From the sequence record OP557969.1: a stretch of DNA of 64,000 nucleotides, one strand, 5' to 3'. A program made the translations under genes and the position numbers. Of the stretch, positions 35,868-37,974 are shown in pieces. Origin of the DNA: Escherichia phage ph0011. Position 1 is the stretch's first letter. Every line of letters starts with the position of its first letter. The notes beneath the pieces were generated by a model. It was not told the DNA's origin and did no database searches. It was given only the letters and a program-made list of their open reading frames with translations.

Positions 35868-36413
35868 ATGAGTTATGAAGAATTATATAAAGCAATAATG
35901 GAAGCAATTGCCCCAACCGATGTAGAGTCATCTCATCTTAAAACAATTGAACATAATGGTAAGGACTTGTATATTACTTTTAAAAATGGAAGTACATACG
36001 AGTATGATGATGTACCCGAATCATTAGTTAGGCATATGCTAACTGTTGATTCTAAAGGTAAATTTTTGTGGAGATACATTCGCGATAAATTTCCATATAG
36101 AAAAACAACAACTATCTCAAAAAAGACATATACATCAAACCCAAATGCTATTAAGCAACGTTTGCGTTATGATGTAGAAACTGGAGAATGGGAAGATGCG
36201 TTGACTCCTGATGTTATTAAAACAGTTGAAATACCTGTAGGATATCAATTTAGAGCACCCAATAACCAAGATTATGTATTTCAAGGAAAACAATGGAGAA
36301 GTAAGCAAACTGGTAAAATTGCACCCAAACAAATCGGTGCTAAGATAACAGATATAGCTAAACGTTTGATTAAGTTAAAAGGAAATGACCAGGAAGGAAC
36401 CGATGAAATATAG
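35868..36413 (+). CDS. KTSC-domain-like hypothetical protein
   Basis: [25 protein letters not shown] resembles the KTSC motif; weak. Confidence 0.4.
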
Positions 36414-37974
36414 TCAATTACAAGAATCTATTATTAAAGTTCCTAGTACCACAATGTCACAGATAAACAAATATGTGGCTAGTATTTTGTACTTTAAGAT
36501 AAAACAATTTATTCAGCAATATGATATACATATGGATGCAGAAACACGTAAACATCCCGCCGCTGATAAAATAAAAGCGAATGTCATTGCTGAATGCAAA
36601 AAAACACTTAATGTGTTAAGTTCTAAATATGGTGCTAAAAATATTAGTTCACAATCATTCAACAATATCGCAAACCAATCTGTTAAGATACCATTTGATG
36701 CTGACCAATATATTAAAGAATTAAATTTTAAAAAAATATCACCAGAAATAATTGATGAAATTAAAAAGACAAAATTATCATTGGTCGTTGCTAATGATTC
36801 TTCTGCTAAAGAACGTGGTTCTATGACTGAAATCTCAGATAACGCGTATGTTATTAGAATAAATGTTAGATTATCACCAAAAGAAATTTATTCATCTTCG
36901 ATGCAAATCATGAGTACTGCGTATCATGAAGCACAACATTTTGTTCAAAGTTCAGTAATCAAGAAGATTAATAGCAAATCTAACCAATTACAGGTTAAGA
37001 AAAACTATGGTAAAAACCATGATGAGTACTTAAGTTCTGGTATCGAGTATACACCACAACTTGGTAATGTTATCGATGCAATGCAAAGTGAAGCACAACT
37101 TCTAATTGATGATAATAATTTACCCCAAGATCCCAAGGAAGCATTTAACAAAGTTCTTCAGCTTGTTCTATCACGTGATGATAAGTATAATGCACGTGGA
37201 TTCATTATAAGTATATATAAAACTTCACAGAAAAAATATAGAACAGTGATGAGTACTTTATATAAAAAATTCATGAATGCATTTGAAAATATTCAGGCAA
37301 ATAGTGCAGAACATGAAGAAGGTCCAGAAGAAGATTTGAGTGTTTCAGTAAATGAAATGAAAACGTTAAGTGATGTAGCTGAAAATTCAAGCTATCTTGA
37401 AACTCGTTTATATGGTCATTCAAGAGATGAAATTACAAAAATCCACTCACAAAGTATTGAACATGGTTGGGAGATGATTATTACCAAACCTTCAGCAAAT
37501 GGCGACACTATTGTTATTCAGATTAGAAGTGATTCTGAGAATGAACGTAATAAAATGAATTATAAACAGGCCCAGAACTTTGTTGGTTCAGTTGCGAACA
37601 TGGAATTTACCGTTGATGAAGTTGTGGAGTTCATGGATGAAATTCTCCACATGGACGCAGATGAAGCAAAGGCTATTAATGGCATTGTGAGTAAGGCTGA
37701 ACAATGGGCTGGTATGATTGGGTTAAACTTCGAGAAAATGAACGAAGGATTTAAATTAAATGATACCGAATTTGTGATTGAGCCTTATAGTGGTCGTATG
37801 GTAATATCATCACCACAATTACCAAATATGTATCTAGTGGGGTCAGATAAAATTATAACTGACATATTAAAATATATTCTGCGTTTTATGAAAGAACAAC
37901 CAGAAAAGTTACTTAAAACATTGAATAGGGACGTTTCAATTGTGCAAATGAGACGAGACTTAGGGAGTTTATAA
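36403..37974 (+). CDS. Hypothetical protein containing an HExxH motif
   Basis: TAYHEAQHF; start at 36403 (MKYSQ) or 36385 (track). Confidence 0.5.

Follow-up and report, generated by a model that had tools for sequence, protein, structure and literature searches.

We analyzed a 64,000-nucleotide stretch of DNA from Escherichia phage ph0011 (sequence record OP557969.1; hereafter the window), focusing on a gene (hereafter the target) whose product carries a single HExxH motif and was considered in a first-pass annotation, made from the letters alone, to be a large hypothetical protein. On the plus strand, the open reading frame (ORF) listing gives 36385..37974, i.e. 529 amino acids (aa), and starting from the second Met gives 36403..37974, i.e. 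523 aa plus the stop codon. As the family alignment and the phrog_18596 profile both begin at this second Met, we consider the start at 36403 to be the right one, which confirms both the gene and the coordinates initially assigned to it. A Shine-Dalgarno-like sequence, AGGAAGGAA, is found 4 nucleotides (nt) upstream of this ATG. A 125.9-kb contig encodes a protein 100% identical to the target (P0001), under the record name 'hypothetical protein [Escherichia coli]'; this contig seems to be a phage genome deposited inside a bacterial assembly. On balance, we favor the reading that the target is a virion-packaged, probably head-internal, zinc metallopeptidase of the gluzincin type. In this reading, the binding of metal and the catalysis are inferred, and so are the way into the particle, the delivery and the substrate. 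The features of the locus are collected in Table 1.

Table 1. Features of the target gene and of its surroundings (positions in the window)
Feature	Position	Strand	Remarks
CDS (coding sequence) of the 523-aa target	36403..37974	+	stop 37972-37974; orthologue of 121Q gp50, phAPEC6 gp162c and CBB_321
N-terminal ~300-aa module (residues 1-300), putative zincin-like metallopeptidase domain	36403..37302	+	model; sole part matched in distant relatives
Boundary motif LQESIIKVP (residues 6-14), after the leader MKYSQ	36418..36444	+	sequence confirmed; E8, I11, V13 and P14 invariant
Predicted three-stranded beta-meander (124-130, 139-145, 148-154)	36772..36864	+	DSSP of both models; candidate substrate-binding edge strand
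Predicted long helix 159-189 carrying HExxH	36877..36969	+	both models; block pLDDT (predicted local distance difference test) >90
YHEAQHFVQ	36922-36948	+	sequence confirmed
HEAQH (residues 175-179): H175, E176, H179	36925-36939	+	putative two zinc ligands and catalytic base; invariant in four alignments
Y209 on short helix 206-211	37027..37029	+	invariant; putative oxyanion-hole residue; aligns with PPEP-1 Tyr178
E215 at the start of helix 213-236	37045..37047	+	invariant; putative third zinc ligand
Two C-terminal alpha/beta domains (318-403, 404-523)	37354..37971	+	model; found only in the ~520-aa subfamily
Sigma70-type promoter match TTGACA-17-TATAAT	34659..34687	+	12/12 consensus match only
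IF3 gene, first of the unit	34732-35235	+	IF3_N 3.7e-17 and IF3_C 1.6e-13, both over Pfam thresholds; conserved in 121Q, phAPEC6 and CBB
ClpS-like adaptor gene	35249-35794	+	20.2 bits vs 23 for the Pfam threshold; phrog_15940
KTSC-domain gene	35868..36413	+	overlaps the target start by 11 nt; 'DnaJ-like' in some records; CBB orthologue CBB_320
Downstream gene, 263 aa	37974..38765	+	start overlaps the target stop; orthologue of phAPEC6 gp161c, a virion protein
Strong intrinsic-terminator-like hairpin, 9-bp stem and T-run	38769..38789	+	directly after the downstream gene; likely unit end

At the DNA level, this region of the window shares 85-88% identity with 33 E. coli and Salmonella jumbo myoviruses, all of the 121Q/PBECO4 type (Asteriusvirus). 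With tblastn, the target displays 84-94% identity to 'hypothetical' or 'virion structural' proteins of 121Q-type phages (121Q gp50, phAPEC6 gp162c), and 28-31% identity to proteins of CBB, GAP32, Serratia phage BF, Yersinia fHe-Yen9-04, Erwinia pEa_SNUABM, Salmonella Munch-like and Xanthomonas XbC2 phages. Its match to phrog_18596, labeled 'virion structural protein', extends over the full length (E = 1.8e-230; long-ORF residues 7-529 aligned to positions 1-531 of the profile), with its N-terminal half also matching phrog_22033. The description of the protein as otherwise unrecognized is thus inaccurate, since it belongs over its entire length to a virion-associated family for which proteomics has been published. 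An exhaustive profile search over 1.84 billion representatives retrieved 84 proteins falling into full-length relatives of the target, proteins of 750-890 aa matching residues ~10-310 only, and ~50 proteins of 270-300 aa matching residues ~155-295 only. Among cultured phages, the short module versions are present in the jumbo phages XacN1, Xoo-sp13, RAS14/CM1 and SCTP-2; an RNA ligase gene adjoins the short homologues of XacN1 and RAS14.

The YHEAQHF motif is present as initially noticed, within YHEAQHFVQ (Table 1). From the amino-acid frequencies of the window itself, we computed a chance expectation for HExxH of 0.46 over the window's ~18,900 coding residues and of 0.013 in the target; the window contains exactly one. 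A single motif in the window is thus what chance predicts, as would suit a fortuitous HExxH in a protein lacking a metal site. What places the motif of the target above chance is its conservation and not the bare pattern count: neither the motif nor its partner residues vary in over 100 homologues, even where mean column identity falls to 10%. We rejected the chance origin on this ground and give it practically no credit.

In 38 homologues (≥25% identity), M170, Y174, H175, E176, Q178, H179, V181 and Q182 are invariant around the motif, as are Y202, Y209, S212, G213, E215, T217, P218, Q219 and G221 further on. The motif is therefore not isolated, as the first-pass annotation had it, since it is followed by a conserved Y-x2-S-x2-E-x2-P-Q (nt 37027-37065). 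When 52 distant proteins were aligned (mean column identity 10%), the sole invariant columns were H175, E176, H179, Y209 and E215, and in two domain-trimmed alignments of distant relatives (one with n = 36) they were H, E, H, Y, S and E. Judged from these alignments, HExxH is the core of a conserved site across the family. E215, 36 residues past H179, is the only invariant acidic or His residue beyond HExxH within the region common to all relatives. The search for a third zinc ligand, suggested at the outset as a check, thus ended by elimination on this sole conserved candidate.

We modeled the protein with AlphaFold2 using the family alignment and obtained a confident model, with a pLDDT of 87.3 and a predicted template modeling score (pTM) of 0.73 for the whole chain, and 90.0 and 0.89, respectively, for residues 1-300 alone. 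This N-terminal module is common to the stand-alone proteins of 270-300 aa and to fusion proteins described below. In the model, helix 114-121 precedes the sheet, the beta-meander comes directly ahead of helix 159-189 in both models (which refers to secondary-structure order only), and more helices follow position 236, up to residue 299. The order of elements, i.e. sheet, HExxH helix, short Tyr helix and Glu helix, is a succession of the zincin type. It agrees with the core described for zincin-like metallopeptidases (MPTases), namely a three-stranded sheet, an N-terminal helix, a HExxH helix and a helix with a Glu (PMC5512222), and with the layout of Pro-Pro endopeptidases (PPEPs), in which the oxyanion-hole Tyr is carried by helix alpha6, with the third-ligand Glu 7 residues on, in alpha7 (PMC12828418). 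For the C-terminal domains, Foldseek returned no significant fold match against PDB; a faint one was to PsiB, an anti-SOS factor of conjugation (3nct_B; prob 0.57, E = 2.7, TM (template modeling score) 0.42 on the target). An internal duplication as the origin of these two domains was considered and rejected (0.6%).

On this basis, the protein would consist of a catalytic N-terminal module of ~300 aa, followed by two lineage-specific alpha/beta domains. The zinc ligands would be H175 and H179 of the long helix, together with E215 of the long helix that follows; E176 would activate the water molecule and Y209 would stabilize the oxyanion, with the preceding beta-meander providing the edge strand that holds the substrate.

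We then compared the module with known zincin families. Among the 50 best sub-threshold Foldseek matches of the N-domain to PDB are two anthrax lethal factor chains (E = 0.9 and 1.9) and six ACE2 peptidase domains (E at least 2.2), with TM at most 0.24; both proteins are gluzincins. Against viral models, Foldseek returned family members only, plus faint matches to SprT-like and IrrE at E ~0.4. A profile restricted to the core (sheet, HExxH helix and Glu helix) gave 11 sub-threshold matches in PDB, ten of which are zinc peptidases, the top nine being PPEP-1/Zmp1 at E ~0.5. The alignment to PPEP-1 spans from HExxH to the invariant Tyr of the family, which is placed on PPEP-1 Tyr178. The spacing is also close, with H179, 30 residues, Y209, 6 residues and E215 in the target, H146, 32, Y178, 7 and E185 in PPEP-1, and 33 and 7 in PPEP-3. 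A few family members display faint matches to WLM, SprT-like, BSP and DUF6782. PF18818 matched neither the target nor any of 90 relatives. With hhalign, the family profile was aligned to an 89-sequence ArdC/PF18818 profile with a probability of 17.8% (score 25.2, P = 0.0014), column-shuffled controls reaching at most 14.5 (n = 20). The hhalign probabilities, 2.5% with a single ArdC, 9.4% with a single SprT and 17.8% with the ArdC profile, are too low for membership, and we do not place the family in PF18818. In our reading, the N-domain very probably adopts a fold of the gluzincin type, closest among solved structures to the M34 enzymes, but is too diverged for proof by these comparisons.

The same comparisons bear on a metal-dependent enzyme other than a peptidase, for example, an alpha-ketoglutarate/iron hydroxylase of the HExxH type or a hydrolase of a non-protein substrate. 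HExxH does occur in alphaKG-HExxH enzymes (PMC13434306), and the family has no significant link to any peptidase family. However, the sub-threshold matches are to peptidases and not to hydroxylases, the order of sheet, HExxH, Tyr and Glu helix together with the Y-x5-E spacing fits gluzincin peptidases, and the domain context equals that of MPTases in polyvalent proteins (see below). We thus consider such an activity highly improbable and retain the peptidase.

The association of the family with virions comes from published proteomics. The phAPEC6 orthologue, gp162c, 84% identical to the target, was detected with 10 peptides (25.4% coverage) by electrospray ionization tandem mass spectrometry (ESI-MS/MS) of purified particles (PMC7247149). 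Also found in these virions were gp161c, the orthologue of the downstream gene product, with six peptides, and gp158c (PMC7247149). CBB virions yielded 30 peptides of CBB_322, the 847-aa paralogue (43.6% coverage), and four of CBB_320, the KTSC protein (37% coverage; PMC5259590). As for the short relatives, XacN1 ORF117 is not mentioned in the text on the XacN1 virion proteome.

A rival reading is a non-catalytic structural or internal head protein, in which the metal site is kept for stability or for protein or DNA interaction, as in an inner-body component or a packaging handle. The databases' label for the family is 'virion structural protein'. Encapsidation of the N4 virion RNA polymerase (vRNAP) depends on its HExxH-domain region, although the protein goes into the particle without being processed (PMC5512222), and the N4 structure paper gives the motif and no activity. 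In addition, the downstream gene, derived from a paralogue of the target (see below), lost the module and its product is still packaged. A structural metal site would however require neither E176 nor Y209, both of which are also invariant over a very deep divergence, and we judge a purely structural role rather unlikely compared to that of a packaged peptidase.

How the target would enter the head is suggested by its N-terminus. A general form of the boundary motif, [LIV]xE[GAS][LIVM][LIVM]x[LIVM]P, is present in 87 of 119 family proteins, and its (L/I)xE part is conserved wherever a module starts. In N-terminal modules it comes after a leader of 3-15 residues; in C-terminal modules it is internal, ~150-160 aa before HExxH, at the junction with the effector domain, and it occurs once per module in the two-module protein P0117. 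In the model, the boundary segment is without regular structure and residues 1-10 are of low confidence. In T4, internal proteins reach the prohead by virtue of a leader of 10 residues, which gp21 removes after a Glu, with P3 and P1 as determinants (PMC9026906), and such a capsid-targeting sequence (CTS) has been proposed as a general loading route for diverse proteins in T4-like phages (PMC9026906). A gp21-type protease is present in these jumbo phages, phAPEC6 gp227c being annotated 'prohead core scaffold and protease'. Based on the T4 precedent and on this protease, we infer by analogy that the leader of the target is a capsid-targeting and prohead-protease site of the T4 type, which would be cut after E8. 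The leader ending in L-Q-E8 would thus act as a T4-like capsid-targeting sequence, the cut by the T4-type prohead protease accompanying prohead loading. Once in the prohead, or after ejection into the cell, the peptidase would cleave co-packaged phage proteins or host proteins. The boundary motif may alternatively be an autoprocessing site or a structural element.

Several observations weigh against a packaged peptidase. Foldseek searches against PDB gave no significant match, the best E being 0.06 with the whole chain and 0.23 with the N-domain. Hidden Markov model (HMM) searches of PDB sequences with the protein, the 38-homologue alignment and the module and core profiles gave nothing significant, peptidases appearing at E of at least 0.5, and no peptidase family was over threshold in Pfam, searched with the target and with 38 close and 52 distant relatives, or in NCBIfam. 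In the alignment to the ArdC profile, of 17.8% probability only, the Glu ligands are unaligned. Regarding packaging, CBB_321, the direct orthologue, is absent from the CBB virion proteome table (PMC5259590). The phAPEC6 list also includes topoisomerase, RecA and SSB with two peptides each, likely contaminants (PMC7247149), which indicates low-level carry-over in these data. An N-terminal (L/I)xE is common, being present in 12 of 70 ORFs of the window (17%). Lastly, the gene is found in an early-looking operon behind a sigma70 consensus, with IF3 and ClpS, outside the structural module. Overall, the initial reading of the motif as a zinc-metallopeptidase signature is partly supported: it is strengthened by the deep invariance, the order of elements in the model and the sub-threshold matches of M34 type, and held back by the finding of no significant match to a zincin structure or profile.

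The domains to which distant relatives are fused bear on where the peptidase would act. P0074 combines the module with ART-PolyVal (E = 7.8e-16), an ADP-ribosyltransferase (ART) domain; P0115 carries ART-PolyVal (E = 1.9e-17), GNAT and the module, and P0099 GNAT and the module. On a metagenomic phage contig, P0075 (L010, 7001-8746) joins the module to an Acb1 phosphodiesterase (E = 1e-39) directed against CBASS (cyclic oligonucleotide-based antiphage signaling systems), which raises the possibility that Acb1 is pre-packaged in virions; an RNA ligase gene adjoins this fusion. P0117 (1002 aa) is composed of a 2H/LigT phosphoesterase and two modules, with HExxH at 546 and 854, and P0095 (566 aa) of two modules, with HExxH at 161 and 449. 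The contigs of the relatives that could be read are T4-like: one stand-alone module follows genes for the S77 prohead protease, scaffold, Gp23 and UvsY, and the ART-GNAT fusion gene lies among small genes and HNH endonucleases. As read from their sequences, the multi-domain relatives have the architecture of polyvalent proteins, in which zincin-like MPTases are the commonest hub domain, at times duplicated, with a proposed role in processing before or after delivery (PMC5512222). The target, with a single recognizable enzymatic module and two further domains, is not itself polyvalent; P0074, P0075, P0115, P0117 and P0099 do qualify. Another ORF of the window, 22136-22471 (plus strand, 111 aa), begins with MRFSDLTEEAPGK, similar to the N-termini of the ART/GNAT-module fusions (MK[VI]xDL[NS]E[KR]AP...); a relationship between these leaders is unsupported, as the likeness in BLASTP ends past ~11 residues.

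These fusions were weighed against a purely morphogenetic peptidase, which would process inner-body, scaffold or other head proteins during head assembly, beside the serine prohead protease, and be left over in the particle, having nothing to do after ejection. Such an enzyme would share the active-site evidence and the finding of the orthologue in virions; an inner-body-like mass is present in 121Q-type heads, the P1 DdrB MPTase has been proposed to work ahead of packaging (PMC5512222), and jumbo-phage surveys propose extra zincin-like peptidases for maturation cleavages. However, the relatives are fused to ART, GNAT, Acb1 and 2H domains with substrates in the host cytoplasm, which argues for an action after delivery. 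Moreover, the gene is outside the head-gene cluster, behind a sigma70-type promoter, and the family is patchy and variable in copy number (two in tandem in CBB, one in 121Q-like phages), which is unusual for a core maturation enzyme. We therefore regard a role confined to head assembly as unlikely, though worth keeping in view, and keep to a peptidase that is packaged and may act in the cell.

A broader scheme, which we put forward as a doubtful extension, takes the ~290-aa module as a self-contained load-and-release cassette. The boundary would be cleaved either by the module's peptidase itself or by the prohead protease, and the body would drive incorporation into the capsid; T4-like and jumbo phages could thus package any of a range of anti-defense enzymes (Acb1, ARTs, acetyltransferases, 2H) in the head and free them at or after ejection, with the stand-alone version of 121Q-type phages and its neighbor being inner-body components.

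Turning to the surroundings of the target, the gene order Dda helicase, IF3, ClpS-like, KTSC, target, second virion protein and topoisomerase II is kept in 121Q, phAPEC6 and CBB. The IF3, ClpS-like, KTSC, target and downstream genes are tightly spaced or overlapping between the promoter match and the terminator-like hairpin (Table 1), and this five-gene unit mixes translation and proteolysis factors with proteins detected in virions. That a peptidase exposing N-degrons and a ClpS adaptor form a functional pair is pure speculation. A second hairpin of the same terminator-like kind is found at 40835-40853, after the gene for the large subunit of topoisomerase II. The T4 late-promoter motif TATAAATA does not occur near the target, and is present five times in the window versus ~11 expected by chance. 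One of these, at 42328-42335 (plus strand), is 12 nt upstream of the gene for an 806-aa virion structural protein (42347-44767, phrog_13911), the orthologue of phAPEC6 gp158c.

The downstream gene is related to the CBB paralogue. CBB_322 (L003, 4611-7154) begins with a peptide of 60 aa (MPSKSKAQ...); its HExxH module (HELQH at 229) comes next, and a middle region leads to the C-terminal domain. The downstream gene product aligns to its residues 1-60 (55% identity) and 608-847 (39%), and the two have in common an MPSKSK(A/S)QA... N-terminal peptide. From this alignment, the downstream gene looks like the 847-aa paralogue minus the peptidase module and the middle region. As the second gene of the ancestral tandem pair has no peptidase module in the 121Q lineage, the target is the sole copy there.

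That phage proteins delivered by virions contain zincin-like peptidases is a general idea dating from 2017 (PMC5512222), so that the family of the target extends a known theme. A 2021 jumbo-phage survey (PMC7824862) reports unnamed 'SprT-like' peptidases in T4-like jumbo phages; these could be the family of the target or a different one. If our reading is correct, a 'virion structural protein' of dozens of jumbo coliphages, several of which are proposed for therapy, would be an enzyme that enters the cell with the DNA. The module would also mark a wider set of phage proteins with possibly pre-packaged anti-CBASS (Acb1), ADP-ribosyltransferase and acetyltransferase domains, thus offering concrete candidates for immediate-early counter-defense and for the inner-body proteins of 121Q-type phages, and the peptidase catalogue would gain a family for which there is no Pfam model.

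Four known systems serve for comparison. With PHROG 18596/22033 (121Q gp50, PBECO4, phAPEC6 gp162c, CBB_321/322, GAP32_316/317) there is no difference in sequence, the target being a direct member of phrog_18596; the annotation of these groups assigns no enzymatic function. The MPTases of polyvalent proteins (Iyer, Burroughs, Anand, de Souza & Aravind, 2017, PMC5512222; ArdC C-terminal/PF18818, N4 vRNAP C1, P1 DdrB) have, as the target, the HExxH helix and then the Glu helix after a small sheet; they belong to virion-packaged or DNA-transferred proteins and sometimes come in two copies, and the relatives of the target are likewise fused to ART, GNAT and 2H. In contrast to them, the family of the target has a signature of its own, HExxHxxQ, Y-x2-S-x2-E-x2-PQ and an N-terminal (L/I)xEG(L/I)IxVP, and the target is encoded among early and replication genes, not late genes. 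The module is most likely a distinct, so far unnamed clade of phage zincin-like MPTase domains.

The M34 gluzincins (lethal factor, PPEP-1/Zmp1, PPEP-3) share with the target HExxH on a central helix, a Tyr ~30 residues on and a Glu 6-7 residues later, on three successive helices, and they provide the top sub-threshold matches of the core profile and some of the best in the Foldseek searches, a likeness that is non-significant (E ~0.5 and 0.9; TM 0.16-0.21). A link of an N4 MPTase to lethal factor was obtained with HHpred by Iyer et al (PMC5512222). As bacterial products that are secreted and serve as toxins or in regulating adhesion, the PPEPs and lethal factor differ from the target, a phage virion protein, and its N-terminal helical part and two C-terminal domains have no counterpart in them. 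Compared with the internal head proteins of T4 (IPI-III and Alt), the target has no sequence homology to either the IPs or Alt, and its (L/I)xE is part of a longer conserved, possibly structural, motif. It resembles them as a non-structural protein reported in particles of a phage with a T4-type prohead protease, by its short N-terminal leader ending in (L/I)-x-Glu (MKYSQ-L6-Q7-E8) and by a gene outside the head-gene cluster; furthermore, T4 Alt has ADP-ribosyltransferase activity, the same kind of enzyme as the ARTs joined to the module in relatives of the target.

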